Shown here: positions 5,742-39,218 of the stretch, in pieces
How positions within the stretch are numbered: position 1 is the stretch's first letter
Layout: every line of letters starts with the position of its first letter
From: a plasmid
DNA: 64,000 nucleotides
Strand: one strand, 5' to 3'
Sequence record: NZ_CP041325.1
The notes under the pieces: model-generated
What the model was told of the DNA's origin: nothing
The model's input: the letters and a program-made list of their open reading frames with translations, nothing else
The model's database searches: none
Translations under genes and position numbers: made by a program

Positions 5742-6828
5742 TGTTTGAAGCACGGAAGAAAAAAGCTGGTGCAGGTATTAAAGAAAAAATGAGATAGGGG
5801 CTATTGTTCTCGTACCGGGACCGAACCTGTATTATTTTACAGGGTTAAAACTCAAACAAAGTGAACGGTTGACGTTGGCAGTTATAACGCAAGAAGCTGA
5901 AACATTTTTTGTTTCACCTCAAGTAGAACTGAGCAAGGTCGAGGAAACAGTAAACGACGATATTTTTTGGTATACCGACGAAGAAGGACCAAGTGGTGCC
6001 TTGTCCCAGTTAAAAAAAAGCAGTGGGAACGCTTGGTATTATCGGGGTCGAATATGATCAAATGAGAGTGATGGAGTTGAAGGCCGTAGAAGCTTTTGAA
6101 GCAGCGGTTGTGGATGGAAATGGGCTGATTAATAACTTAAGGATCTGTAAAGATGAACAGGAAATTGAGCAATTGCAACAGGCTGTCAACATCTTGGAAT
6201 CAAGTTTTGAAGCAGTGCTTCCATATATCAAACCCGGAGTAACGGAAGTTGAAATTGCGGCTCAATTGGAGTTTGAGATGAGAAAGAGAGGTTCTGAAGG
6301 AACACCATTTGGAACAATTGTTGCTTCTGGTGACAGAGGGCCAGTCCTCATGGACGTGCTAGCGAAAAGAAAATTCGTTCGGGAGAACTCGTTGTTATGG
6401 ATTTTGGTGCCATTGTTAATGGATATGTAGGAGATATTTGCAGGACTGTCGCCATAGGAACCGTTTCAACAGAGCTAAAAGAAATCTATGAAATAGTACA
6501 ACTGGCGCAACAGACAGCTCTCGATAGCGTCAAACCCGGCGTGACAGCTCATGAAGTTGACCAAGCTGCGCGCGAAGTCATTGAGAGCCATGGTTATGGA
6601 GAATATTTCACTCATCGTACGGGGCATGGACTGGGTTTGAATTCTCACGAAATGCCTTATCTCATGAAGAACAATGAAATGGTGCTTCTACCGGGAATGG
6701 CTTTTTCAGTAGAACCGGGTATTTATCTCCCGGACAAAGTGGGAGTGCGAATCGAGGATAATCTTATTATTACAGAGGATGGCTTTATCAACCTGATGTC
6801 GTTGCCAAAAGAGCTTCTGACTGTATAG
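5742..6828 (+). CDS. M24-family Xaa-Pro aminopeptidase/dipeptidase (PepP/PepQ-like), fragmented by at least three frameshifts
   Basis: N-terminus MFEARKKK... at 5742 is broken at an A6 run. Pieces 5869..6057, 6023..6430 and 6397..6828 carry pita-bread fold motifs (...GYVGDICRTVAIG..., ...HRTGHGLGLNSHEMPYL..., ...GMAFSVEPGIY...). Confidence 0.65.
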
Positions 6829-14602: not shown

Positions 14603-14830
14603 TCAATCTTCCCAGAGCTCCTCCATCAGCTTTTCAATTTCTTTTCTCCGCTTCTCTGTCTCGTCTTTCAGGATGGTCGCCTGTTCATCCTTGATTTCGA
14701 CGAAGTCACCAGGCTTAGCATTCTCAGGGAAGATGCTTTTCTTGAAATCCTGGGGCTCTCCATTAACTTCGACCACAGCGATATCCTCCTCGAACCGGTC
14801 AATAATCCCTTTGATGATCTCCATGGTCAT
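14603..14830 (-). CDS. DUF3006-family small protein
   Basis: 75-aa ORF translationally coupled downstream of the MBL-fold gene, the usual DUF3006 pairing. Codon usage is GC-rich. Confidence 0.5.
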   Translation of the reverse strand: MTMEIIKGIIDRFEEDIAVVEVNGEPQDFKKSIFPENAKPGDFVEIKDEQATILKDETEKRRKEIEKLMEELWED

Positions 14831-15642
14831 TTCACCGTTGCGACCGTGATCTTGGTCCCTGTCGAGGTGAAGATAATGTTGCCCTTCTGGTCGGTTCGAT
14901 AGACAGCCGCCTTGTACGGCTTGTAGCGGTTGAGTACTTCCGCGGTCGGATGACCATAAGCATTCTTGCCGACACTGATGACGGCGTACTTCGGCTTCAC
15001 CGCTTTCAGGAAATCCGCGTTGGAGGACGTCTTCGCCCCGTGGTGTCCGACTTTGATGACGTCCGCGAGGAGCGTCTGTTTTGCTTTGACCATGTCTGCT
15101 TCAGACGCCTTCTCCGCATCACCCGTGAACAGGAATTTGTTCTTGTTGTACGTCACATGCAGCACCGCGCTCCAGTTATTGAGATCGGTCTTGCCATAGT
15201 CGCGCGTCGGTCCGACGAATTTCGCCATCACGGTTTTCAATGGTAGCTTGACGCCGACCTTCGCGGTCTTGATCGTCAGCTTCTCGGCCTTCACAGCTTT
15301 CAAAAAGTTCGCATAGGCATCCGTCGTGTGCGCCACTTTCGGGGCGTAGACCGATTCCACCTTGTACGCTTTCAGCACTTCATCCAGGCCGCCAAGGTGG
15401 TCGGCATCCGGATGTGTGGCAATCATGATCTCGATGTCGTCCACTTTCTGTTTCTTAAGGTAGGCGATGACCTCGTCGCCCTGTCCCTGGCGTCCGCCGT
15501 CGATCAGGACGTCTTCACCGCCCGGCATCTTGATGTAAGTTGCGTCGCCTTGGCCGACGTTGATGAAATGCACCTTCATCGTCGGTGTGGCAGCGGAGGT
15601 GGACGGTACGGACACGAGCCCGGCCAATAGGAACATGGACAT
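14827..15642 (-). CDS. secreted MBL-fold metallo-hydrolase (ComEC C-terminal-domain-like beta-lactamase fold)
   Basis: 271-aa ORF with a signal peptide. Motifs HFINVGQGDATYI, ATHPDADHLGG and VGHHGAKTS are the metallo-beta-lactamase fold motifs of the ComEC/YqgX-like group. Confidence 0.7.
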   Translation of the reverse strand: MSMFLLAGLVSVPSTSAATPTMKVHFINVGQGDATYIKMPGGEDVLIDGGRQGQGDEVIAYLKKQKVDDIEIMIATHPDADHLGGLDEVLKAYKVESVYAPKVAHTTDAYANFLKAVKAEKLTIKTAKVGVKLPLKTVMAKFVGPTRDYGKTDLNNWSAVLHVTYNKNKFLFTGDAEKASEADMVKAKQTLLADVIKVGHHGAKTSSNADFLKAVKPKYAVISVGKNAYGHPTAEVLNRYKPYKAAVYRTDQKGNIIFTSTGTKITVATVK

Positions 15643-15785: not shown

Positions 15786-15799
15786 AGAACAAGTGTTCT
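15786..15799. promoter_or_regulatory. LexA/Cheo SOS box AGAACAAGTGTTCT (GAAC-N4-GTTC)
   Basis: Exact match to the Bacillus-type LexA operator core GAAC-N4-GTTC. It lies 21 bp upstream of the polymerase start and overlaps the promoter -10/+1 region. Confidence 0.6.
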
Positions 15800-15819
15800 T
15801 TTCGGAAGGGGTGAAGGAT

Positions 15820-17076
15820 ATGGAGAGCCGGGAAGGGGGGGAACGCACGATTGCTTGCCTCGACATGCGCAGTTTTTATGCGAGTTGTGCGGCGGTCGAG
15901 GCCGGGATGGATCCGCTGGAAGCGTATATCGCCGTCGTCGGCAACCAGGAGCGCAAGGGCAGCGTTGTGCTTGCGGCCTCCCCGCGGATGAAGCAGGAGT
16001 TCGGGGTCCGTACCGGCACCCGGCTGTTTGAAATCCCGGGCGACCCGCGGATCCGGCTCCTCGAGCCGAAGATGGGCTTCTTCCTGAAGGTGTCGATGGC
16101 CATCACGGACCTATTGGCGGAGTTTGTGCCGAAGGACTGCATCCACGTCTACAGCGTCGACGAGAGCTTCATCGACTTCACCCGTGTGGAGAGCTTCTGG
16201 GGCGGGGCAGAGGCGCTCATTCGCCACATCCAGGACGCGCTTGTCCGCCAATTCGGGCTGCCGTCTGCGGTCGGGGTGGGGCCGAACATGCTGCTGGCGA
16301 AGCTCGCACTCGACCTAGAGGCGAAGAAGAGCGGCTATGCCGAGTGGACGTATACCGACGTGCCGAAGAAGCTGTGGCCGGTCGCGCCCTTGAGCAAGAT
16401 GTGGGGCATCGGGTCCCGCACTGAACAGACCTTGAATGGCATGGGCATCTTCTCGGTCGGCGACTTAGCCTGCACGGATGTCGCAAAATTGGAAGGTCGC
16501 TTCGGCATCATGGGACACCAGCTCTATCAACATGCCAATGGCATCGACCTGTCGGAGCTCGGCGCGCCGCTCATCGAAGGGCAGGTCAGCTACGGCAAGG
16601 GGCAGATCCTCTACCGGGACTATACCGAAGTGGAAGACATCCTGACGATCATCCTGGAGATGTGCGAGGACGTCGCGATGCGCGCGCGGCAGGCCGGACG
16701 GGCGGGGCGCACGGTCCAGCTGGGGGTCGGCTACAGCAAGACAGCGTTCGGCGGCGGCTTCTCCCGCTCGCGTTCAATCGAGGAGGCGACGAACGAGACG
16801 CTGGCGCTCTACCGGGTCTGCCAGGAACTGTTCCGGGAACATTACCTCGGCAAACCGGTCCGCCAGATTTCGCTGTCCCTCAGCAACCTGGAGGAAGAGT
16901 CATCGATGCAGCTGAGCCTGTTCGAGGCCCAGAAATGGGAGAACCGCAAGCTCGGGGCGGCGATGGACCAGATCCGGAACCGGTACGGCTATTCGGCGAT
17001 CTACCGGGCGGTGTCCGGGACCGAAGCTGGAACGGCCATTGCCCGGACACGCTTGATTGGCGGGCATCAGAAATAA
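15820..17076 (+). CDS. Y-family DNA polymerase (DinB/UvrX/YqjW-like translesion polymerase)
   Basis: ORF from ATG 15820 (MESREGGERTIACLDMRSFYASCAAVE...) with RBS AAGGGGTGAAGG. It carries the Y-family motifs (DMRSFYAS, SVDESFIDFT, little-finger region), a GC-rich codon bias and a LexA box upstream. Confidence 0.8.
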   Translation: MESREGGERTIACLDMRSFYASCAAVEAGMDPLEAYIAVVGNQERKGSVVLAASPRMKQEFGVRTGTRLFEIPGDPRIRLLEPKMGFFLKVSMAITDLLAEFVPKDCIHVYSVDESFIDFTRVESFWGGAEALIRHIQDALVRQFGLPSAVGVGPNMLLAKLALDLEAKKSGYAEWTYTDVPKKLWPVAPLSKMWGIGSRTEQTLNGMGIFSVGDLACTDVAKLEGRFGIMGHQLYQHANGIDLSELGAPLIEGQVSYGKGQILYRDYTEVEDILTIILEMCEDVAMRARQAGRAGRTVQLGVGYSKTAFGGGFSRSRSIEEATNETLALYRVCQELFREHYLGKPVRQISLSLSNLEEESSMQLSLFEAQKWENRKLGAAMDQIRNRYGYSAIYRAVSGTEAGTAIARTRLIGGHQK

Positions 17077-17382
17077 GAAACTTGTTCTAAGAGAATTAAA
17101 AGAAGACGTTATACATATTCTTTATTAGGAATTATTGAGCGTTAATTCTAGAAGGTGCAATAATGCTTCAATATGGATATAAAAGACGGACGGAATAGTT
17201 AGAGCAAATGACAAAGTTTTCTATACAGAAGAGAATTTTTCGTGTTCAAACGTGACGTTTTAGTAGCTTAAACATGTAATATACCTATCAAAAAACACAA
17301 AAACGGCTCATTGTAAACTTTTCTTTCTTTTCATTACGATAATGTTAGTTACAACAAAAAGGAGAGATTGGGATGGATTACG

Positions 17383-17700
17383 AATTGGAATTACCGGAAG
17401 AGTTTGAAGGAATGGAATTGCTGCAGACGTTAATCAGTCCAGCAAAAGTCAGATACGGGAATTATGATTCTTGGTGAGAATTATGCGGAGGGAGTTGAAC
17501 GGCCGACTGTGCGGATTTACCTAATCAGTATCGGAAAAGATGAATGGAATATCGAAGGAGAACTTCAGGCGTTTACATTTCCAAGTTTCGGCAGCGCGAA
17601 GCGGTTTGTCGAGGATTTGCCAAGTATGTCGGCCATCGATTTGTTGCTGCTTATGAACGGGCATCAAGCTACCCATCCTAGTAAACAGATTATGCAATGA
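17383..17700 (+). CDS. hypothetical small protein (two ORF pieces, possible frameshift)
   Basis: MDYELELPEEFEGMELLQTLISPAKVRYG... with RBS AAAGGAGAG continues in 17464..17700. No recognisable family. Its position downstream of a Y-family polymerase is reminiscent of YolD-like partners, but this is unverified. Confidence 0.3.
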
Positions 17701-18180
17701 AATGATATATAATGGTGCTCTTTCGACGATATTCTTATGTCTCCGTAAGAGATTACCTTCTGAAGGTTCTGAAGGTAATGATAAACTGAAATACCGCACC
17801 TGCAAGGTAACAAGGCAAAGAATTCCCGGCTATTTGTGGTCCAAGCTGCTCGAAGTCCGGGAAAAGCAGGCCATCCATCGGCTCTTGAAAAAGGATGCCC
17901 ACTTACAAGAACTTCAATTGTTCATCAGCGAGTTCTAGCAGCTCATGCGACTACAGCGAGAATGCCTGCATTGAATACGAAGAAAAAAAGCGGAATCAAG
18001 GAACTGAAGCAATTTGGACGCTACTTGCAATCAGATTGGCAAGCTGTTGAAAAATTCCCTGATTCATCGCTGGAGCAATGGTTTGGTAGAAGGTCATGTA
18101 AATCGCATTAAAGTGATCAAATGGTAAAGGTATGGCCGGGCTAACTTTAATCTGCTTCGCCTTAAAATTTTATACCGTTC
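17700..18180 (+). mobile_element. degraded ISL3-family transposase C-terminal remnant
   Basis: Translations across the frames give ...LQSDWQAVEKFPDSSLEQWFG... and ...VEGHVNRIKVIKW.RYGRANFNLLRLKIL, matching the conserved C-terminus of ISL3 transposases (...WSNGxVEGxxNRLKxIKRxxYGRAxFxLLRxRIL). The N-terminal two thirds are absent. Confidence 0.55.
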
Positions 18181-18337
18181 CAATTAATACTTTCCTAAAA
18201 AACAAGCTAACCATTCACCAGCTGCCGACAATCATCTTCACCAAATTGCGGAAGAACCAATAATAAACCGGTGTTAACAAATATTATTTTCAATTTTAAA
18301 AAATAAGTTTAATACATCGAGTGCTATATATTTTTAG

Positions 18338-18375
18338 GAACCTAAACAACCGTGTTTAAGTTCCTTTTTTGCTGT
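18338..18375 (+). terminator. hairpin (AGGAACCTAAAC/GTTTAAGTTCCT) followed by a T-run, putative terminator
   Basis: 12-bp near-perfect inverted repeat with a 6-nt loop, then TTTTTTGCTG. Confidence 0.35.
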
Positions 18376-18603
18376 TATTTAGCATTTGGTTATAGAAATT
18401 AGAAATAATAATTACCTTCTTTGATCTATCGAATGGTGCAAATTCACTTTAAATAATTTTCTTAATTTTTTCTCAAAACCTCAAAAATAAATCTCTTTTC
18501 GATGTGAATACTTGTATAATTTAGGTAATAATAAATATTTTTAAAGACTCATAAATTAGATGAATTAATTTAATTAAAATACTATTAAATATATAGGGGG
18601 TTA

Positions 18604-20208
18604 ATGATGGAGAGCATAAGAATAAGAAATTTAAGAAGTTTAAAAGACACAGGGGAGGTTGAACTCAAACCGTTAACTTTATTAGTGGGGAAAAATAGCT
18701 CAGGAAAAAGCACCTTTTTAAGAACCTTCCCATTATTCAAGCAAACTATAGAAACTAAAACTAATGAACCGATTCTTTGGTATAGCAGTAGATACGTTGA
18801 TTTTGGAAGTTTTCATGAAAGTCTTAATAAGATAACAGCTAAAGAAGAGGAGGAAAAGAAAAATATTAGTTTTGATTTCAAATTTAGTATCCCAAGTTCA
18901 GTTGTACAAATGGGAACTGTTGATATATTAAGCTACTATTCTTTAAGACCAAGTAGAATGAGTAGAATTTATAATTATAATTACAGCAATAGTAACCGTA
19001 AAACACCATTTAAAATAAGCATTGAAACGAATCAAAAGTCATTATCTAAATTTACTATTTCTATAGAAGATCATTTACTTGAAATGACTTTAAAAGAAGA
19101 TGAAAAATTTAGTCAAGTAGGACTTAAAATAAACGGAGTACCTATTTCAGAAACTTCTAGTTTAGTAGCTCGATACGCTAAAGATTACTCGCAGTTATTA
19201 CCTTTAATCTTTAGTGACAAAAGTAATTCTTCTGAAAATAATTATTTTAGAGATGAGTTATTTAAAATTTTTCAAAGCTTGGCTTATACTTCTACGAGAA
19301 GAAATACGATTTCAGAGTTTATTGAGGACATAAAGTTTGGTGATAAATCTGAAATTATTAATAATATAAAAAGTCAAGATACTACAGCTAATGTTCTATT
19401 AGAAAATTTAAAAGCATTAGAGTCCGACAATGAGGTAATGCAACAAATTATAATAAATTACATAGGTATGAATATAAATCCTATAATAACAATGTGTAAT
19501 AATTATATAGAACAGTATTTCTCTTCAATTAATTACATCGCTCCTATTAGAGCGAGTGCCGAAAGGTATTACAGAATTCAAGGTCTTTCTGTAGATGATA
19601 TCGATCCACAGGGCGAGAATATACCAATGATTTTCAATAATATGAGTGATATTGAAAAAGAAAATTATAACCATTGGTTATTTGGTAATTTTGGATTTCA
19701 AATATCAGCAAGCCCTACGGAAGGACATTCATCAATAAGAATAAAATATAGTAATGGAGAAGAGGTTAACTTAGCAGATACAGGCTTCGGGTATTCTCAG
19801 ATTCTCCCAATTACTTTAGTTCTATGGCAGACTTCAAAACAAGAACGAAAAGACATATTTGCATATAGTGGATTATATAAAGCTGATTACAATTTTTTTA
19901 ATTTAGTGATTGAGCAGCCTGAACTACATTTGCATCCAGCTATTCAGGCTAAATTAATCGATGCATTTATAAAGATAATTATGCTATGTAAAGAAAAGAG
20001 TATTGATATTAAAATTATTATCGAAACACATAGTGAAACAATGATTAATAGAATTGGATATATAATAGCAAAAAATATAGAGGAATTTACCGAGGATTTA
20101 GTTAAGGTAATTATTTTTGAAAATGATGAGGTCTTTGATACTAAATTAAATGTAAGTACATATTCGGAAAACGGGTATCTAAAAAAATGGCCTTTAGGTT
20201 TTTTTTGA
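18604..20208 (+). CDS. AAA_15/AAA_21-type ABC ATPase with DUF3696-like C-terminus (OLD/PARIS AriA/AbiL-type ATPase component)
   Basis: Intact 534-aa ORF. The Walker A site is at LLVGKNSSGKSTFLRTF. There is a long low-complexity insertion. The C-terminus has the NLVIEQPELHLHPAIQAKLIDAF... (Walker B/D-loop) and ...IIIETHSETMINR (H-loop) motifs. Confidence 0.75.
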   Translation: MMESIRIRNLRSLKDTGEVELKPLTLLVGKNSSGKSTFLRTFPLFKQTIETKTNEPILWYSSRYVDFGSFHESLNKITAKEEEEKKNISFDFKFSIPSSVVQMGTVDILSYYSLRPSRMSRIYNYNYSNSNRKTPFKISIETNQKSLSKFTISIEDHLLEMTLKEDEKFSQVGLKINGVPISETSSLVARYAKDYSQLLPLIFSDKSNSSENNYFRDELFKIFQSLAYTSTRRNTISEFIEDIKFGDKSEIINNIKSQDTTANVLLENLKALESDNEVMQQIIINYIGMNINPIITMCNNYIEQYFSSINYIAPIRASAERYYRIQGLSVDDIDPQGENIPMIFNNMSDIEKENYNHWLFGNFGFQISASPTEGHSSIRIKYSNGEEVNLADTGFGYSQILPITLVLWQTSKQERKDIFAYSGLYKADYNFFNLVIEQPELHLHPAIQAKLIDAFIKIIMLCKEKSIDIKIIIETHSETMINRIGYIIAKNIEEFTEDLVKVIIFENDEVFDTKLNVSTYSENGYLKKWPLGFF

Positions 20209-20223
20209 GCCGGAGGGAATTTA

Positions 20224-21427
20224 ATGTTATTAAAGATTGATAGTTCATTAGTTGATTATTTAAAAGATAATTCCTCAAAGCCCAATTTAATAAATAACGA
20301 AGTTCAGGCTTTAAATAATCTCTCTATAGCACACAGGGACAAAAAACATATTTTATTTGGATCTTTAGATGTAGTAGAATTTTTAAAAGATTTTAAACCC
20401 TTAGATGATACTGCGCTAGGAATTTTTAGCAATTTATTTAAAAAGTTTACTTTCATGGGAATATATGAAGAAATGTTTGATAATCAAATATTAATTAAAA
20501 GTAGAGAACATAAGTTTTTAAAGAAGTTTGTTAAAGAGAAAGTAATATTTGAAATTCCTATAACTGATTTTTTTAGATATAGAGAGTATTAGTAGAACTG
20601 CACTAATTGGAGAAGACAGTACTGACTGTGAATTTTATGAAGGATTAGCAAAACAGTATATTACAGAAAATTATGGGATTTCTGCTATTAATTTAAACTT
20701 TCACCATGTGAATGGAGGGGGAGTAAATACTTGGAAATCCTTGCGTTATTACAGTGAAAATAAAAAAATCTCACTTACTATAACTGATAGTGATAAGCGC
20801 TACCCAACTGGTAACGTAGGAGAGACTTTAAGAAAATTGAGGACTGAATATAATAAACATAAAAATAATACGATAACAGATTTAGTGGAGTTAAAAGTAA
20901 GAGAAAAAGAAAATTTAATTCCTCCTTCAGTTTATTTGTATTGCTGCAACAGTTCTGATAAAAGTAGATTGGAAAACTTCATGTTATTAGAGGATTCTAA
21001 TAAGCATTCCGAAAAATTATTTTATTTAGATTATAAAGAAGGGTTAAACGTTAAGAGCTATAAACGAGATTCTCAATTGCAAGGATATATAGAAGAAATG
21101 GTGAAAGATTTTCCGCACTTAGCCACTTGTAGTTTGGAAGATATAGATTCCTTATCTGACGATTATCGTATTATTGAAGGTATAAGTATGAATGTTTCAG
21201 ATTATTTTAGTGTAGGAGTTTTTTACGAAGGTTTAGAAAAAGAATTAGAAGATAAATTAATGATAGAAAAAATACCAGCAGAAGTTATAGATGATTTGCG
21301 TAATAGTATAGACAAAAAAAATAAAATGTTTAGACATATGCCAGAAAGCTTTCAAGTTCATTTGGAGGAAATTTGCAAAAAGCTTATTGATTGGGGATGT
21401 GCTAATAGTTCTTTTATTGCGACCTAA
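20224..21427 (+). CDS. TOPRIM/DUF4435-like putative nuclease partner (AriB/OLD C-terminal-domain-like). Either one gene split by a +1 frameshift at a T-run near 20566-20574, or two genes.
   Basis: ORF 20224..20592 continues in frame 2 from 20564 (..LIFLDIESISRTALIGEDSTDCEFYEGL...ISLTITDSDKRYPTGNVGETL...) into ORF 20708..21427. The conserved Glu (GEDSTD) and DxD (TDSDK) match a TOPRIM-type catalytic signature. It starts 16 bp after the ATPase stop with RBS GGAGGGAA. Confidence 0.5.
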
Positions 21428-21785
21428 ATACTTTGAAAAAGCATTTAAAAATATTTATGAAAGTATTACTTAAATTGTAAATTGATTTGTCAAGTGTATA
21501 GTGATTACGTGAATTTTTTTCATAAAAGATGGTTTATAAGAGGCCGAAAAGAAGATTCCAATTTCTTCTCGGCTACTTCTAATTTAGTCTCAAAATTTAT
21601 ATCAAAAGCACTCTATTATAATATTGCTTAAGAATGATCCAGCTAAGAAAAGGAAGGACATCGATTCTTATAACGAATCTAATACAGTATCTATATTTAA
21701 GTGTTTATACAATAAAGTTATTTTTTGCTTAGTCTCGGCTGCGTACTTACTCGAACGAACCCTGGAATCGCAAGCTCGTCCAACT

Positions 21786-24700
21786 TTATCGTAAAAGTAT
21801 GGTGTGAGTTACTTTATCTATGATTTGCTGTGAAATTTCTCGATCGAAATCTGCTATCTCTGGTAATATAGCATTAATATTTGCTAAATCTATTTCTTCA
21901 AAGTTCGATATTGCTTCAGCAATTATAGTTGATTTCTTGAGTAAAAATAATCTCAATGAATTGGGGTCTTCATTTATTAAGTGGAAAATAAGAATATGCA
22001 GAGCTTGCCATTCTAATCGATCTTTTGAGTAAGAATCTCTATGCATAGGAATATCAAAATCATTTTCTATATAATACTTAACTAGCGAAGGAGAAAAAGC
22101 GAACTGATAAAGGTTTATTTTCTCAAATTTCTCTTTATTACTGTAAAGAAAATTATCAATTATTCGAACGTGCTTTTTATCAAGATACAAAAAGAGGAAC
22201 TCAAGTATTTCACTATGAAAGCTCGCCCAAACATTATGCTCATCAAATTTAGTTTTTATTCGGGTTAAATCTATAGCTTTAATAAGCTCAGAGTATTTAC
22301 CTGAATCAAACTTTCTCAGAATCTTATAGAAACTAGATAAGTTGTGCCAACTGCGAAAGGGAACTGTTACTAATTCTTCAGCCAATTGCTTGGGTTCAAT
22401 AAAACTAATGATTTTTTCACCAATGACTCTTTGATCTTTTTTAATATAATCTCTTTTTTCGCTTAAAGAGTTGAATCCCATTACTATTGCTAAAAATTTG
22501 AAATCTAGCATATGCCAAGCGTTAATTGAATGTTGTTTAAATGCATTGCGGAAATTGTCAGACATCACGTGAAATAATTTAATGCCATAAAGTCTGTCGT
22601 AGTTAAAAATGTTCCCAATGAAATCAACTAAGTCTTCGAAATCTAACTGGTTATTTTCCAATAAAAGTAGTTCTGTTTCAATCTGGTTTTTGTCTAAAAG
22701 CTTGAAAAATTCCTTTGCTCTTTCAATTGATAAAAGAAGACCTAACCTAGAAATAAAATAACTCCAGTGATATAAATCTTCTTTCTTTAAATTAGAAAAT
22801 CTATTAGCAATTTCAGTTATATTTAAGTTGTTACCAAAATCTTTTGCTTTAATTCTATCCGAATTATACATATCATTTATTATAGTGCCCAATGAATAAG
22901 CCGTTATACTATTTACATTTTCAATTTCTTTATGAATTGTTGAAGAAAAATGATATATATCAAAATACTCGGTTTTACTAAACTTTGTAAAAGTATTGGC
23001 GAAGTATAAAGCATGAGTAGTGAGAGTTTTTTTCTTCTGACGACAAGCTTTCTTCAATGATATGGTAAACTTCGTCTTTCGAAATAATATAAGGCATTCT
23101 AAAATGCAGTTCACTAGTGAAAATTGTATTCATAAACCATACTTTTCCTAAAAGCGGATTATTTAGAGATATCATTTCATTGTGTACTATTTGCTCATAT
23201 TTTTTTCTATTTTCTGTGTCATTATCGAATATGAACTTCAATTGTCTTTTAGCTGCTTCATAGTGAATCATTCTAAGGAAGAAACCATCAATTAACCTTT
23301 TCTTTCGTAGTGCTTTTAAATTTTTATTTAGCCATTCTTCATCTTCAGAAAAGTATTCTTTTACGTTCTGTATTAACCAATTTTCATTTACTGTATTATC
23401 TTTGGTTATTATCTGTTTTAGAGCCAGTAAAAAAATTAATCTTTGTGAGTTGTCTAGATCTTTTGATTTAAAGTAGTTATCTTTAGTAGTTTTCCACCCG
23501 CCTCTAATTACATAATTAAAGGTCCAAAGATTGTCCTCTTTCGAGGCGGCATCTATTCTTTGATCGAACGATTCTTGCAGAAAGTAATTTCCTAAGTCTC
23601 CATCTATTTTTGAAATAATATGTGAAACTGTTTTTTCATTTTTTCTGTAAAATTCACTAATGCAAGCGATATTCTCATTATTAGAAATTGAAACTGTAGC
23701 GGAATCAACTTCTATATCTTCAGTAACTGTCAAAATGATCTTTTGATAATTACTGCTTTTTTCTTGTAAGATTTGCAAAATCGAACTGGGTAGAATATGT
23801 CCATCATCAATGATATATATTGCTTTAGGATTGCTGGGTAAAGAAAAATTATCGATATCTGTAAAATCATTGGTTTTGAAACGTAAAACTTCATATCCAT
23901 GTTTTAAAAAATGAAAAGCGATTTGGTAACAAGAAATGGATTTACCAGATCCGGGTTTTCCTTGAAGAATAACAAAGTTATTCAACTCTAAAACTTTAAT
24001 AGCTTTTTTGAACTTGGGGCATTTCGGGACAAACGCTCACGTCTTGAGGGGTAAGTTTGTACCCTAAAACGGCTCTTCCAATACTATCATTTTGATTTTT
24101 AAAATTTAAGTACTCCCATTTATTATAATTATTCTCGTCTATCAAATTTTCAACTAATTCCTCAAAAAATTCCGACGCCGATAAATTAATCACTCTTTCA
24201 TCAGTTGAAAATGGGGAAACTCTATAGACTTTCCATTTATCTTCTAAAGGCGAAATCAATTCTTCTACAATTTTTGCATCGCTTTCTGAATAGCCAACGA
24301 TAACTAGAGTTCTAGGTCTTTCCATTGCTAGTAGATTAATATGTTTTTGTTCTTCGTCACTTATATTTCCTGGAGAGTTTGGAAGTACCCACTCAGAATT
24401 TAAATTTAAGACATCTCCGTGTGGTTTGATCAAATTTATTTTACTGTCGTTTATTCGGGTACCATATAATTCAGACCATGACATTTCTAATAAGCTATCC
24501 CAATTAAAAGAGACAATTAGCTCAAAAAATTTTCATGAACTAATTTAGCTATATTATTATGTATACGAGGGGCAACGGTTATTTTACTGTTAACCTTGCT
24601 AAACTTGCTTTTAAATAAACTTACCGCATCTTCATTCTGTTCAATATATGAAAACGCCCTTTTGATTTTTTACAAAATCTTCTCCTATTCTACTCTTTGT

Positions 24701-24886
24701 ACTTCCAATGCCTTTAAACTTCTGATCGATACTAGGAAAAGAACTTACTACCTCCCAAACAATAGGAGCAAGCTGGTTACCTAGTGGCATTCCAGGTTCA
24801 AAGGAAACTCCCGCCCCAATAACTACGACAGCATTATTAACTCTTATTTCATTAATTATTGAGGTTAAATTATTAACAGACTTCAT
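21786..24886 (-). CDS. SIR2-domain / STAND P-loop NTPase / C-terminal helical-repeat protein (Avs type-5-like antiviral STAND), about 1030 aa, interrupted by about four homopolymer frameshifts
   Basis: N-terminal SIR2-like Rossmann region (VVVIGAGVSFEPGMP ... LIKPHGDV ... IVGYSESD) spans 24886-23996 with two shifts at T-runs. At the A6 run 24003-24008 the SIR2 frame (..CPEMPQVQKSY*) and the NTPase frame (..KAIKVLELNNFVILQGKPGSGKS, Walker A; AIYIIDDGH, Walker B) are both open. This argues for one fused ORF. The C-terminal 442-aa helical domain (23114..21786) overlaps the NTPase ORF by 136 nt in another frame. Confidence 0.6.
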
Positions 24887-24984: not shown

Positions 24985-25603
24985 TTATAAAGGAGTTGCT
25001 GTCTCTGCTTCGATTTCTCTCACTAATTTATAAAAACTAGTTTTTTTAACTCCAGTTTCTTGCATGGCTTCAACTGCTGTTAATTCTCCAGATTTCCATT
25101 TTCTATAAACCTCTTTAAATTCTTCTGAAACAAGAACAGGAGTCCTGCCAAACTGAATGCCGTTTTTCAACGCTAAGTCGATTCCTTCGCGTTGCCGTTT
25201 TCGTATGCGTTCCCGTTCTTCTTCTGCCATCCAGGAAAGAATCTGCAAAACCAAATCTGCAATGAATGTTCCCATACTATCTTTATACTGCGTCGTATCG
25301 AGTAACGGCATATCCAGCACCACGATATCCGCTTCGATTTTTTTTCGTCAGGTCATTCCATTCCTGGAGGATCTCTTCTTTGTTCCGGCCAAACCGATCC
25401 AGCGAGTGGATATATAAAATGTCGCCTTTCCGGATAATCCGTTTGAGCAGCTGATAGTTCGCTCGCTCGAAATTCTTACCACTTTGCTTGTCCAAATAAA
25501 TATCCCGTTCAGTGATGCCCATTTTTCTCATTGCTTCCAATTGACGGCCTTCGTTTTGATCTTTGCTGCTGACACGTATGTAGCCAAATTTGCGATGTTC
25601 CAT
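24985..25603 (-). CDS. serine recombinase (resolvase/invertase family), one frameshift at a T-run near 25325
   Basis: N-terminus MEHRKFGYIRVSSKDQNEGRQLEAMRKMGI...IYIHSLDRFGRN has the catalytic Ser and the resolvase motif. The C-terminal piece (...GRTPVLVSEEFKEVYRKWKSGELTAVEAMQETGVKKTSFYKLVRE) is the HTH domain. Confidence 0.75.
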
Positions 25604-25775: not shown

Positions 25776-26116
25776 AAGTATAGTGGCATGTATAAAAAGG
25801 GAATAAAGGAGAATTCGGCGAATTACCTGTTTAAGGAAATAAACCAATTGTTAAAGAAGACAACTAGGGGCGAGGGGAGTGATTCGTTTTATTCGATATG
25901 AAGAGGATCAAATGTATTTAGAATTCACAGAAATAGAACCGGCTGTAAGTTTAACGGAATTTGTAAAATATCTATAAGATGAAGAAATCACAAGACGAAA
26001 GGATGCCTTGGCGATGGCTTTCAAAAAGCAAAAAACAGAAAGAAATCCAGGCAGTCTTCCGAACTTTGCTCGCCTGAAATCATGAATTGAAAAATTTGCC
26101 GAAAGGATGTGATGAT

Positions 26117-26515
26117 ATGACGATTAACGTATTTATCAGCTATGACTACACCAGCGATAAAGAGTATGCATCCTTATTAAAAGCTTGGGCTGAAAACGAT
26201 GCCGAACATTTTAAGAACATTAATTTTATTGATGGTTCTAGCGATTTTTCAAGAGAATCTACTAAAGTGAACGCCTTCAAAAATTCAATTTCAAGAAGAA
26301 TGAATGCGTGTGATAAAATACTTGTTTTAGTTGGAAAAGAAACCTACAAAAGTGATTGGTGTAAATGGGAGATCAAGAAAGCTGAAGAACTTGAGCTTGA
26401 TTTTGCAGCAGTTAACATTGAACATGCAAATGCATCTCCCATCAGCTTGTACGGAAAAGGAGTAAAAAGGGCGAGAAGTTTTACTGAAGCAGCCATTGAA
26501 AGCGTCTTAACGTAA
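26117..26515 (+). CDS. TIR-domain protein (ThsB-like / DUF1863 MTH538-type TIR)
   Basis: 132-aa ORF from ATG 26117 (RBS AAAGGATG): MTINVFISYDYTSDKEYA...CDKILVLVGKETYKSDWCKWEIKKAEE. The FISY.., ..ILVLV... and S.WC..EI signature marks a bacterial TIR-like domain. The ORF track starts at TTG 26087. Confidence 0.65.
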   Translation: MTINVFISYDYTSDKEYASLLKAWAENDAEHFKNINFIDGSSDFSRESTKVNAFKNSISRRMNACDKILVLVGKETYKSDWCKWEIKKAEELELDFAAVNIEHANASPISLYGKGVKRARSFTEAAIESVLT

Positions 26516-28748: not shown

Positions 28749-29413
28749 TCAAGGCTTAAAAGCTCTGTATGCCCTCAATGTTCCGACAATCGTCGAAAAC
28801 TGCCTTGTCTCTTCAATGGCCACAAAACCGGTTTCCTTAAGCAAATCCGGGATGATGCCTTGAACATGCGGTGAAGTGGTTTCAAATCCGTCCATGAATT
28901 GGACAGGGAGAAAGGCCACGCGCATCAGCGCGTTTTGTGGCTTCTCGAAATCCAGGACATGGAATTGGCCGCCCGTTTTAAGGACCCGGCAAACTTCTTT
29001 AAACGTTTCCAGCTTCTTCTCCACAGTCAGATGATGGATGAACAGACTGGTGAAGACATGATGAAACCGGTTACTAGAAAAAGGGAGCTGTTCCGAAAAG
29101 CCTTCCACAAAGTGGATCGATTCAGCACGGTTTTTCTTTCATCTTCTTTTTCGCAATAGCCAGGATTTCGGGATCGGCATCGAGTCCCATTACATGCACG
29201 CCGGAGTGGGATTGCTGAAGCAAAAGGGCGAGCGTTCCAGTACCACACGCCAAGTCCATTGTCAGCTCGCCCGGTTGAAGGGCCGCCTGGTTGACCAGAT
29301 GTATTTTCATCTTTTTTTTCTTGCATGCCCCGTTCGATTAGCGGGTCATAAAAACGAGTCAGCCAACGGTACTTGAGTGCCGGTATATAAGCTCTTTTCG
29401 GAGTTTCCTTCAT
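28749..29413 (-). CDS. class-I SAM-dependent methyltransferase (UbiE/type-11-like), three ORF pieces
   Basis: Motif-I LDLACGTGTLALLLQ in ORF 29122..29310, the N-terminus in 29027..29413 and the C-terminal domain in 28749..29108. Confidence 0.55.
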
Positions 29414-30157: not shown

Positions 30158-31630
30158 CTATTCGGATTCAATTACAAATTCAATTGTCTCCCGGTCGGAA
30201 ATCGTCGGAAGTTGATAGGATTGCTGGTAGTTTTCATGGCCTTTGCCGGTGATTACAACCCAATCGCCCGTCTTGCTTTCGTTGATTGCTTTTTGAATGG
30301 CGACTGTCCGATCCGGAATTATGCTTCCCTTTTCATTACCGTAAGTCTCATTTAGTCGTTTTAAGTCGTCCACCATCTCGATTTGCGACACCGTGTTCAG
30401 GTCATCCAATGTCAAATGTACCGGTCACTCCATTCTGCGCTTATCGACAGCATGGCGCTTCGCTTGCTAGGGTCCCGGTCCCCACGAAAGCCAAAAACAT
30501 GGATAATCCGTTTGGCGCCCTGTAATTTTACGGTTTCCAAGCAGTAAGAAACGGCATCCGGTGTATGGGCATAGTCCACCACGACGGTTGAGCCATTGGT
30601 TAGTTTGGAAACTTCAAAACGTCCTTCGACCCCCCTTGAAATGTGGAACGGAATCCAAAAGCTTTTCTTTGGGAATCCCCAGAAGCCGTGAAGTTCCATA
30701 CGCCATCAAGGTGTTGTACATATTGTGCATGCCGTTCATCGCTGAGTCCATTTGGTACGTTTCGTTCCTTTCCTCCACCAGCATCGTGGAGGTCGTTGGG
30801 GTAAAGTAGACAACGCGCAGATCGCAGTCAGAGGACCTGCCAATCGCATACACCGATTTCCCTTCCCTTTGCAGGGTTTCCGTAAGCTTTCGCCCCCACA
30901 CATTATCCGCATTCACCACAGCGGTTCCGTTCGCTTTCAACTGATGGAACATCAAAAGCTTCGTCTGGAAGTACTCCGCCATGGAGCCGTGGTAATCCAG
31001 GTGCTCCGGATGAAGATTGGTAAACAAGCTGTAATCAAATGTAATACCTGCCAAACGGTGTTGGGCCAATCCGTGAGAAGAGACCTCCATGATGATGACC
31101 TCATCGCGGCTGAGGGATAATAGCTTGTGCAAAGCCAGCGAACTGGGCGTGGTGTTGGCGCTTTTCGTCTTCTGACCATTGATCACATTTTGGATGGTCC
31201 CGATGACAGCACAAGTCATCCCGTTGTTTTCTAGAAAATGCTGCAGCATGTAACTTGTGGTCGTTTTCCCATTGGTTCCTGTTATGCCAATCATTACTTT
31301 CTCTTTGGACGGATGCCCATAGAAATTCCTCGCCATTATGCCAAGGGCTTTGCGGCTATTCTCCACTTGAAGATAAGGGATGGATAGGCCGGTGATTTCC
31401 TGTTCTCCCACGACCACTAAAGTGCCTTTTTCAATTGCTTGTTCAATATACTGATGGCCATCACTTTTAAAGCCTGCAATGGCGACAAAGACGAATCCTG
31501 CCTCGACATCTCTGGAATTATCGGCAATGCCTTGGATATCTAACTCTAACGTGCGGGAATTCAACCGATTAATCAAATCAATTTCCTGCAAAAGTTGCCT
31601 TATTTTCATTGATTGGGTAACCTCTCTCAA
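30158..31630 (-). CDS. Mur-ligase family protein, MurE-like (UDP-MurNAc-tripeptide synthetase paralog), three ORF pieces
   Basis: The N-terminal domain reads ...DSRDVEAGFVFVAIAGFKSDGHQYIEQAIEKGTLVVV and the P-loop reads IGITGTNGKTTTSYML. The C-terminal pieces (..VVVDYAHTPDAV.., ..VVITGKGHE..) are in other frames. Confidence 0.65.
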
Positions 31631-37130: not shown

Positions 37131-39218
37131 ATGGCGAAACAGGAAGAGCATCATCATCATGAACCGGCACATTCCAAGGACTACCCAAATCCTTCGGACA
37201 GGAAGCTTCAAGATGAATCCACCATCCAGCCGAAACAGACACATCCGAAACATGGGAGCCACGGGCACCAGGGGCATTCCGGACATGGCGATATGGTGGC
37301 GGATTTCAAAAACGGTTCTTTATTTCTTTGATACTCACCATCCCGATTTTAGCGTTATCGCCAATGATTCAGCACTTTATGGGCGTTAATTGGCGTTTCA
37401 ACAACGATCTTTATATCTTATTCGCATTATCCTCCATCGTCTTTTTCTACGGAGGCTGGCCATTCTTAACCGGCGGAATCCAGGAACTCAAAGAGAAGAA
37501 TCCGGGCATGATGACCTTGATTGCGTTGGCCATCACCATCGCTTATGGATACAGCACCGTAGTGGTCTTCGGATGGGACGGCAACCAGCTGTTCTGGGAG
37601 CTGGCGACGCTGGTGGTCATTATGCTGCTCGGGCACTGGGTTGAGATGCGTTCCATAATGGGGGCCTCCAATGCGTTGGAACAGTTGGTGAAGCTGATGC
37701 CGAGCGAAGCGCACAAGCTCGATGAACACAATCAGGTTCAAGACATCCCGTTAGCTGATATCCAAAACAATGATCGGGTGCTGGTCAAGCCGGGCGAGAA
37801 GATCCCAGTGGATGGGTTGATATTGGAAGGCAAATCGACAATCGACGAATCGATGCTGACTGGGGAATCGGTTCCGATTGATAAAGGAACAGGGGACAGT
37901 GTCATTGGTGGTTCGGTAAACAAGGAAGGCTCGCTCATCATCCAAGTGGAAAAACGGGGAGGCTTCCTATCTATCGCAAGTCATCAAGATGGTCAAGGAA
38001 GCACAGGAATCCAAATCCCGGACACAGGATCTGACAAACCGGGCAGCCAAATGGCTCTTTTATTTGGCGCTGGCAGTAGGGTTTATCACCCTATTCGCGT
38101 GGCTGGCGTTCGGTTATGCGTTTGATGTCGCGATTGAACGCATGGTGACGGTAATGGTCATCGCATGTCCGCATGCGTTGGGCTTGGCGGCACCGCTGGT
38201 CGTAGCGGTCTCCACATCCATCTCCGCCAAGCAAGGGCTCTTGATCCGGAATCGCGCCGACTTCGAAGGGGCCCGAAACTTGGATGCCGTGGTGTTTGAT
38301 AAAACCGGGACACTGACGCTAGGGAAGTTCGGTGTCACAGATGTTGTGCCGATCGAGAATTATACCGATGAAGGAGTGCTGCAACTGGCTGCGGCCATCG
38401 AACAGAATTCCGAGCATCCGATCGCCGCCGGTATCGTAAATTCGACCAAAGAAAAAGGGCTAACCATCGGAAAAGTAAGCGATTTTGAATCGATACCCGG
38501 TAAAGGGATTCAAGGAAATGTGAATGGCCAGAAAGTGAATGTGGTCAGCCCAGGCTATATGGACAGTCATGAACTTCGCTACAATCAGGAACGATTTGAA
38601 CAGTTATCCGAAGAAGGGAAAACAGTCGTCTTTGTACTGGCGGAAGATCAACTAGCTGGAATGATTGCCTTGGCGGATATTGTCCGCGATAGCGCCAAGG
38701 AAGCTGTTGCTGCCTTGAAGGCGAAAGGCATCCATTCAATCATGCTGACGGGCGACAACCGGAAAGTGGCCAATTGGGTAGCGAAACAAGTGGCCATCGA
38801 TGAAGTCTATGCGGAAGTACTGCCGAACGAGAAAGCCCATCAAATTCAGCAAGTCAAAGATAGCGGGCGCAGAGTGGCAATGACGGGAGACGGCGTGAAC
38901 GATGCGCCGGCACTGGCGACAGCTGACCTCGGGATTGCCATCGGCGCAGGGACGGATGTCGCGATGGAGACAGCCGATGTGGTCCTTGTCCGAAGCGATC
39001 CGAACGATGTGGTGTCGCTGATCGACTTGTCGAAAAAGACGTACCGGAAACTGGTGCAAAATCTATGGTGGGCGACCGGCTATAATATTTTTGCGATTCC
39101 ACTCGCTGCCGGCGTCTTGGCTCCTTGGGGCATCGTGATCAGTCCGGCAATCGGCGCGGTCTTCATGAGTCTCAGCACCGTCATTGTTGCCATCAATGCC
39201 AAATTATTAAAAGCATAG
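37131..39218 (+). CDS. P1B-type heavy-metal (copper, CopB-like) translocating P-type ATPase with His-rich N-terminus, three ORF pieces
   Basis: The His-rich N-terminus is MAKQEEHHHHEPAHSKD...HGSHGHQGHSGHGD. The TM and actuator region contains TGESVPIDK. The third piece contains CPH (ACPHALGLA), DKTGTLT, and [10 protein letters not shown]. Confidence 0.75.

Follow-up and report, generated by a model that had tools for sequence, protein, structure and literature searches.

The window analysed here, a stretch of 64,000 nucleotides from plasmid record NZ_CP041325.1, contains two adjoining genes (gene A and gene B; together A/B), which are described below as a candidate anti-phage cassette made of an ATP-binding cassette (ABC) type ATPase and a Toprim-like nuclease. 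Both genes and all of their features lie on the plus strand. As deposited, gene A occupies positions 18604-20208 and encodes 534 amino acids, and gene B is present as two open reading frames (ORFs), a first piece of 122 amino acids (20224-20592) and a second piece of 239 amino acids in frame +1 (annotated GTG at 20708 to 21427). The ATG of gene B at 20224 is located 15 nt past the stop codon of gene A in this form of the sequence. Each gene holds a homopolymer with one T in excess, namely a T8 run in gene A (20199-20206) and a T7 run in gene B (20568-20574). Once the T8 run is repaired, gene A extends over 18604..20224 and encodes 538 amino acids with the C-terminus ...GFFEPEGI, its stop codon (20222-20224) overlapping the ATG of gene B. 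Gene B is read as one protein of 400 amino acids (20224..21427).

The product of gene A matches the Pfam families AAA_15 (PF13175; E = 3.6e-27, 96.4 bits against a curated cut-off of 32.1) and AAA_21 (PF13304; E = 2.2e-16, 61.2 bits against a curated cut-off of 27), and ABC_tran is matched at the P-loop only, under its cut-off. The nucleotide-binding motifs are found in the following order: (i) the Walker A motif or P-loop GKNSSGKST (18688..18714, residues 29-37), in which G29, N31, G34, K35 and S36 are invariant among 32 homologues, (ii) a degenerate ABC signature TGFGYSQ (19780..19800), which reads GxG and not SGG and has D392, G394, G396, S398 and Q399 invariant, (iii) the Walker B region LVIEQPELHLHP (19903..19938), invariant from E437 to P445 in the same 32 homologues, and (iv) the H-loop or sensor histidine ETHSE (20023..20037), with E474, T475, H476 and S477 invariant. 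Across these homologues Walker A, APxRAxAERYYR, DTGFGYSQ, IEQPELHLHP and ETHS are all invariant, and Insert-1 (residues ~90-300) is poorly conserved. The Walker B-PExxLHP motif of OLD-ABC ATPases is thereby present alongside Walker A and the H-loop. The canonical D-E dyad of Walker B is lost, being replaced by E437-Q438 (IEQPE) throughout the clade, and an Arg occupies the position of the Q-loop Gln. The Gln at the position of the catalytic base suggests that the protein binds ATP while hydrolysing it slowly or not at all, and that it may serve mainly as a binding switch.

Among the PADLOC models, NsnB gave the top match to gene A (1.2e-45, covering 1-332 of 345), followed by PDC-M55A (1.1e-36), models named AriA and HEC-03B (1.1e-27); HEC-01A scored 1.7e-15. 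Taken with the motifs, this identifies the protein as an OLD-type AAA_15/AAA_21 ABC ATPase of the NsnB-like clade, with Walker A and H-loop intact. The first-pass annotation, made from the letters of the DNA and their translations, had described a split ABC-type ATPase followed by a Toprim-like nuclease, and the AAA_15 and AAA_21 matches as well as the OLD-type residues of gene B bear this out; the Walker A site, LVIEQPELHLHP and ETHSE of the 534-amino-acid protein lie where it had placed them. Of the AAA_15/21 plus DUF3696 architecture that it proposed, the ATPase part stands, and DUF3696 (PF12476) was absent from the window protein at E<=1 in the Pfam search. A precomputed PF12476 match exists in only one listed homologue of gene A, and one homologue bears the name DUF3696. 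A C-terminal tail, WPxGFFxPE, is conserved in the 32 homologues and is possibly a divergent equivalent of DUF3696.

An AlphaFold2 model of the 400-amino-acid gene B product, built on 15 sequences, gave a single compact fold (predicted local distance difference test score, pLDDT, 91; predicted template modelling score, pTM, 0.89). Three parts can be distinguished. The N-terminal extension that had been noticed at the outset proved to be a separate alpha/beta domain of ~115 amino acids (20224..20568, residues 1-115), in which H42 is nearly invariant. This domain has a weak PIN-like similarity, and its ‘first Asp’ position is not conserved; a possible identity for it is that of a PIN-like adaptor without activity. 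The Toprim core follows at 20597..20929 (residues ~125-235) and contains E130xxxD134, NGGG (G166), D188xD190 and VREKENLIPPS (E227, E229, N230). In the model these elements are arranged as beta1-E130, helix, beta2-NGGG, helix, beta3-D188-S-D190, helix and beta4-VREKENLIPPS, an order of predicted secondary structure that corresponds to the Toprim pattern. The C-terminal helical region (20930..21427, residues ~236-400) carries near-invariant D269, K271 (nt 21035-21037) and G273 and has a C-terminal WGC motif.

Conservation in gene B was assessed in 90 diverse family members with a mean column identity of 24%. Seven residues are invariant (E130, D134, G166, D188, D190, E229 and N230) and six more are conserved in at least 90% of members (H42, G199, E227, D269, K271 and G273). 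Thus, the Glu of ALIGEDSTD (E130, 20612-20614) and the DxD of ITDSDKRYP (D188/D190, 20786-20794), which the first-pass annotation had picked out, both fall on invariant columns. A Glu after beta1 and a DxD after beta3 are the features by which OLD-family Toprim domains are recognised, and gene B has both. Furthermore, the two-metal site of B. pseudomallei OLD (BpOLD) consists of E400, E404, D455, D457, T506 and E508 together with the catalytic K562 (PMC6755086), and E130, D134, D188, D190, E227, E229 and K271 of gene B occur in the same linear order and with similar spacings as this set. K271 is proposed as the counterpart of K562; the residue correspondence is drawn from linear order and conservation and not from a residue-level superposition. 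Gene B encodes an OLD-like Toprim domain with a full set of conserved acidic residues, joined to a helical domain with a conserved Lys, as judged from the alignment and the model.

The family is large and poorly catalogued. An exhaustive profile search recovered 1,938 cluster representatives (clusters at 50% identity) at E<=1e-3 and 1,575 at E<=1e-10. A word-indexed homologue search had suggested a family of merely 15 proteins, a figure that was rejected as an artefact of sensitivity in light of the exhaustive search. Neither the two pieces of gene B nor the repaired protein matched any Pfam family, including DUF4435 and Toprim, the repaired protein being searched at E<=10, and nothing was found in NCBIfam. 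DUF4435 (PF14491) was matched by 0 of the 90 relatives at E<=0.01. At the level of the family, PADLOC PDC-M55B was matched by 50 of the 90 members (best 6.4e-13), and weak links were obtained to the GajA model (three members, at 3e-5) and to Pfam OLD-like_TOPRIM (one member, at 0.0014). Searches of PDB sequences with hidden Markov models built from 15 and from 90 gene B sequences returned chance matches only (E>=0.04). Of the TOPRIM/DUF4435 nuclease first suggested for gene B, the Toprim assignment is retained on the order of its elements, their conservation and these weak family-level links, with no Toprim profile match of its own at E<=10, and the DUF4435 assignment is dropped.

Both genes are broken in the deposited sequence. 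The excess T at 20568-20574 breaks the frame within gene B. It had been left undecided at first whether the downstream ORFs were one protein of about 400 amino acids, shifted at this T-run, or two; gene B is a single gene, because homologues of 375-406 amino acids are collinear across the break and because removal of one T joins the frames into a product 100% identical to QKX52786.1 (400 amino acids). A second indel, absent from the first-pass annotation, is the excess T at 20199-20206, which creates a premature TGA, so that gene A loses its 5 C-terminal residues (EPEGI) and no longer overlaps gene B at TAATG. Removal of this T restores EPEGI and the TAATG stop/start overlap and yields an ATPase 100% identical to QKX52785.1 (538 amino acids); in relatives the run is T7 or T6 and the protein continues as ...GFFEPE... 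In the deposited record, a P. glaciei plasmid of 157,579 bp with FK545 locus tags, the ATPase is listed as QDY47006.1 and the pieces of gene B as QDY47007.1 (122 amino acids) and QDY47008.1 (239 amino acids). The 538-amino-acid ATPase (QKX52785.1) and the 400-amino-acid partner (QKX52786.1) are encoded by another plasmid record of P. glaciei (157,805 bp, HF394 locus tags), and the two copies are 100% identical apart from the indels.

Other genes in the window are broken in the same manner. The resolvase (a serine recombinase) at 24985-25603 (minus strand) reads as two ORFs of 106 and 112 amino acids owing to a +1 at 25338-25345, a T8 run, as comparison with the unbroken gene of Planococcus sp. 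4-30 indicates (86% identical; locus L005, 12756-13373). A P-type (E1-E2) ATPase gene at 37328-39218 (plus strand) is split near 38.0 kb, with profile positions 2-89 and 101-180 in separate ORFs. The SIR2-STAND gene next to A/B is likewise in four or more fragments. ORF junctions across the window fall on homopolymers of 6-8 nt, further examples being A8, T8 or C6 runs at 6012-6019, 29312-29319 and 30630-30635. In addition, the same record holds a 159-amino-acid fragment of a second gene A copy (QDY46925.1, FK545_20130) with a different frameshift. The deposited record appears to contain many homopolymer indels. Since an intact and otherwise identical HF394 copy exists and other window genes also break at homopolymers, the +1 T indels in genes A and B are, with high confidence, miscalls of the assembly, and the real cassette is therefore probably intact.

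It is improbable that both insertions are instead real and mark a cassette inactivated either by decay of a costly or toxic system or by slipped-strand on/off switching. Such an inactivation would account for the presence of both indels in the deposited record and for their position in T-runs, which slip in vivo too; the nearby SIR2-STAND gene and resolvase are also broken, as in a decaying island, and sporadic pseudogenisation of such systems is mentioned in the Menshen paper (PMC12065111). However, a near-identical plasmid assembly (157,805 versus 157,579 bp) encodes both proteins intact, unrelated genes such as the P-type ATPase are split as well, and both the position of the window's ORF junctions on 6-8 nt homopolymers and the differently frameshifted QDY46925.1 favour sequencing error. 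The T-run of gene B is not conserved in Planococcus sp. 4-30, which speaks against a programmed switch. Programmed frameshifting or phase variation at this run was considered as a separate explanation and rejected on the same absence of the run and the existence of the intact, otherwise identical copy.

The module is listed twice in both records, as QKX52785/52888 and QKX52786/52889 in HF394 and, in FK545, as the fragment QDY46925.1 besides the window copy. This reflects either a true two-copy plasmid or ~158-kb records that are dimer assemblies of a ~79-kb plasmid.

Genes A and B are always adjacent and usually translationally coupled. Loci were located by a contig scan with a 15-sequence alignment of the gene B family; 24 were fetched, some of them duplicates, leaving 16 distinct loci. 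A homologue of gene A was found directly upstream of gene B, on the same strand and abutting or overlapping it, in every locus with upstream DNA (23/23). The taxa include Planococcus, Bacillus, Peribacillus, Fictibacillus, Paenibacillaceae, Clostridia, Eubacteriales and Streptococcus mitis, and the cassette also occurs on six IMG/VR viral contigs. In three prophages of the B. cereus group it fills the variable position that separates the integrase from AimR, the arbitrium regulator, in Planococcus sp. 4-30 it lies on a plasmid and adjoins a resolvase, at two S. mitis loci it has inserted between purK and purB, which are housekeeping genes, and in B. velezensis it lies next to ABC transporters. 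Genes A and B thus travel together, as one cassette, between chromosomal sites, plasmids and hotspots in prophages. On one IMG/VR prophage contig, an AAA_21/AAA_15 ATPase (406 amino acids) and a 290-amino-acid protein with no Pfam match lie directly upstream of A/B (3-2093 of that contig); the two cassettes may stand in tandem, this one being a two-gene ABC-ATPase system of another kind.

In the window, the G+C content is ~29% from ~18.0 to 25 kb and 40-63% on either side. Downstream of gene B, on the minus strand at 21786-24886, at least four ORFs encode a SIR2-like N-terminus (24641-24886 and 23996-24484), an nSTAND3 nucleoside triphosphatase (NTPase; 22978-23985, 1.8e-9) and a 442-amino-acid C-terminal region (21786-23114), with one break at a homopolymer (23027-23033); together they look like one broken Avs-type SIR2-STAND defence gene. 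Past the resolvase and ~4.7 kb from A/B, a plus-strand gene at 26087-26515 encodes a 142-amino-acid ThsB-like TIR protein (Pfam ThsB_TIR, 6.1e-19). The region is a defence island, given that the SIR2 and nSTAND3 NTPase gene, the resolvase and the ThsB-like TIR gene neighbour A/B. The low-G+C island is bordered by a plus-strand Y-family DNA polymerase gene (IMS/IMS_C, 15793-17076) of 55-63% G+C and by a minus-strand gene of the metallo-beta-lactamase fold (14827-15642). A related polymerase gene (75% DNA identity) lies upstream of A/B on two metagenome contigs, which points to a shared mosaic backbone. Positions 18000-22000 had no match among PLSDB plasmids by megablast, and an exact search of the contig index for the window's ATPase gave no record. 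Scanning for promoters and terminators told little, the DNA being rich in AT (22 promoter-like sites were expected and 21 seen, with zero terminators).

Taken together, A/B is probably a self-contained two-gene anti-phage cassette of the abortive-infection type, composed of an OLD-ABC ATPase with a nuclease of the Toprim kind. A mechanism may be proposed if A/B is likened to PARIS, Septu, Gabija and the NsnB4-NsnC2 complex predicted for Menshen. In PARIS, six AriA hold three AriB until a phage protein is detected in an ATP-dependent manner; AriB is then set free and cleaves tRNA-Lys (Burman et al. Nature 2024, PMC11464382). In the AlphaFold3 prediction of NsnB4-NsnC2, paired C-terminal tails of the ATPase clamp the N-terminal domain of NsnC (PMC12065111). 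By this analogy, the gene A product would oligomerise and keep the gene B product inactive, its C-terminal tails probably clamping the N-terminal domain of gene B. The variable Insert-1 of gene A would sense a protein or nucleic acid made by the phage in a manner dependent on ATP binding, upon which the gene B product would be freed or switched on. Its two-metal Toprim site could then cut nucleic acid, either tRNA or other RNA as AriB does or DNA as OLD and GajA do, so that phage growth would be halted and the cell sacrificed.

Several points weigh against this assignment. The A-B complex, its trigger and its substrate are all drawn from analogy; the PIN-like similarity of the gene B N-terminal domain is weak; gene B by itself has no significant Pfam, NCBIfam or PADLOC match, the best being PDC-M55B at E=0.04; and genes A and B are both damaged as deposited. 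Moreover, the A/B family and PDC-M55 both have candidate status only, and HEC-01, the nearest tested ABC plus Toprim candidate, gave no protection in E. coli against the phages tried (Payne et al. 2024).

A toxin-antitoxin-like addiction module, in which A/B would chiefly stabilise its plasmid or prophage with B as the toxin and A as the antitoxin or regulator and no specific anti-phage role, is judged quite unlikely. The occurrence of A/B on plasmids and prophages would suit such a role, Pfam describes AAA_21 as a ‘putative AbiEii toxin, Type IV TA system’, and a nuclease with a binding partner resembles toxin-antitoxin logic. Nevertheless, the chromosomal sites beside purK/purB and transport genes are unrelated to the maintenance of an element, the cassette sits in the integrase-AimR variable slot of prophages and near SIR2-STAND and TIR genes in the window, and the characterised pairs of an AAA_15/21 ATPase and a nuclease all act in defence.

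The anti-phage assignment is of interest since ABC-ATPase and nuclease pairs are among the commonest plans of bacterial immunity, of which few are understood (PARIS, Septu, Gabija). No Pfam or NCBIfam model exists for the gene B family, despite its size of 1,938 representatives at 50% identity, and the FK545 record annotates one 400-amino-acid gene as two hypothetical proteins, the cause being homopolymer indels that affect many genes. A/B is unlikely to surprise a specialist; its interest is moderate and lies in a widespread candidate family, a stand-alone core and a degenerate ATPase site.

Compared with known systems, A/B follows the split ‘OLD-ABC + Toprim’ theme of the class 4 OLD-like systems (PARIS, AbiL and MADS3-4), of which it is an ordinary variant catalogued only as a candidate. 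Of the PARIS-, AbiL- or OLD-like identity put forward in the first-pass annotation, the OLD-like part is upheld, the closest systems being NsnB and PDC-M55 rather than PARIS or AbiL. That A/B is a bona fide PARIS (AriA/AriB) or AbiL system, with an Ocr-type trigger and cleavage of tRNA-Lys, is very unlikely. PARIS is activated by anti-restriction proteins such as Ocr (PMC11464382), and gene A does match models named AriA; these models, however, are as long as Pfam AAA_15 and AAA_21 (373 and 304) and rank below NsnB and PDC-M55A, and no AriB or AbiL PADLOC model was matched. AriB is a DUF4435 Toprim protein, whereas gene B and its 90 relatives (at E<=0.01) lack DUF4435 and gene B has an extra N-terminal domain; AriA belongs to a different clade from gene A, whose Walker B is degenerate. 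By the defining domains of these systems A/B is neither PARIS nor AbiL, because DUF4435 is missing. The notion that gene A is a housekeeping SMC, RecF or RecN repair or chromosome protein with gene B as an unrelated neighbour, an affiliation that the first-pass annotation had itself named as one that would refute its reading, is effectively refuted, as its weak matches to SMC_N (Pfam; E 0.0041, 17 bits against a cut-off of 40) and RecF (NCBIfam TIGR00611; E 0.0033, 16.6 bits against 172) fall far under the cut-offs and cover only the P-loop region within ~40 residues of the N-terminus, A/B is mobile, low in G+C and patchy in distribution, and linkage of A to B is strict.

In OLD classes 1 and 2 and GajA (e.g., P2 Old, Ts OLD 6p74, Bp OLD 6nk8 and GajA 8u7i) the ATPase and Toprim are fused, as they are throughout classes 1-3, whereas A and B are separate genes in each of the 23 loci with upstream DNA. 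A UvrD-like helicase is a further requirement of OLD class 2 and of Gabija; A/B has none, no helicase gene of the GajB UvrD-like kind being adjacent in the window or in the relatives' loci. HEC-01, with an ABC ATPase and Toprim, and HEC-03, in which PIN takes the place of Toprim, are two-gene ATPase-nuclease cassettes like A/B (Payne et al. 2024), but their partner models do not match gene B. For HEC-03, protection was observed and both genes were required (Payne et al. 2024).

PDC-M55, like A/B a two-gene cassette of an ABC ATPase and a partner, is one of 145 candidates predicted from their embedding in BREX, DISARM or type I restriction-modification loci (‘guilt by embedding’; Payne et al., bioRxiv 10.1101/2024.01.29.577857). 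It is the closest catalogued entity and, with the NsnB-NsnC part of Menshen, the closest relative of A/B. Gene A matches PDC-M55A at 1.1e-36 but NsnB better, and gene B reaches just E=0.04 with PDC-M55B; the window lineage therefore represents a divergent branch that PADLOC would miss.

In Menshen (Millman 2022; Li et al. NAR 2025, PMC12065111), NsnB has EN in Walker B, an R where Q is usual and GxG for SGG, and so shares three departures of gene A, namely the loss of the Walker B catalytic Glu, the GxG and the Arg for the Q-loop Gln. NsnC may resemble gene B in its layout of a small N-terminal Rossmann/PIN-like domain (an inactive PIN-like one in NsnC) and a C-terminal nuclease, the PIN-like similarity being weak in gene B, and Toprim-fold effectors occur among NsnC proteins (PMC12065111). 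These are DUF4276 or RloB Toprims, in contrast to the OLD-like Toprim of gene B, and NsnB carries a C-terminal DUF3696 helix where Pfam detects none in gene A. Menshen further has the ParB-DUF262 sensor NsnA, which does not adjoin A/B in the window or in any of the 16 distinct loci; upstream of gene A, 17100-18600 contains no ORF >91 amino acids and no Pfam match, and so no NsnA (ParB-DUF262 + ParBDB). Without NsnA, A/B fails the three-gene definition of Menshen. An NsnB-type ATPase with a degenerate Walker B here pairs with a nuclease in the absence of NsnA, which bears on phage sensing in Menshen, and from sequence comparison A/B seems to show that an NsnB-NsnC type core can stand alone. More tentatively, A/B could be a free-standing ‘NsnB-NsnC’ module, an autonomous core to which the DNA sensor NsnA was later joined to give three-gene Menshen. 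Gene A, inefficient in ATP hydrolysis with Gln for its Walker B Glu, would then itself be the phage sensor, and ATP binding alone would latch the OLD-type Toprim nuclease via a PIN-derived adaptor. If so, the family's cluster representatives, ~1,900 when clustered at 50% identity and ~1,600 with E<=1e-10, would constitute a widespread candidate defence family whose sensing logic is distinct from that of PARIS.

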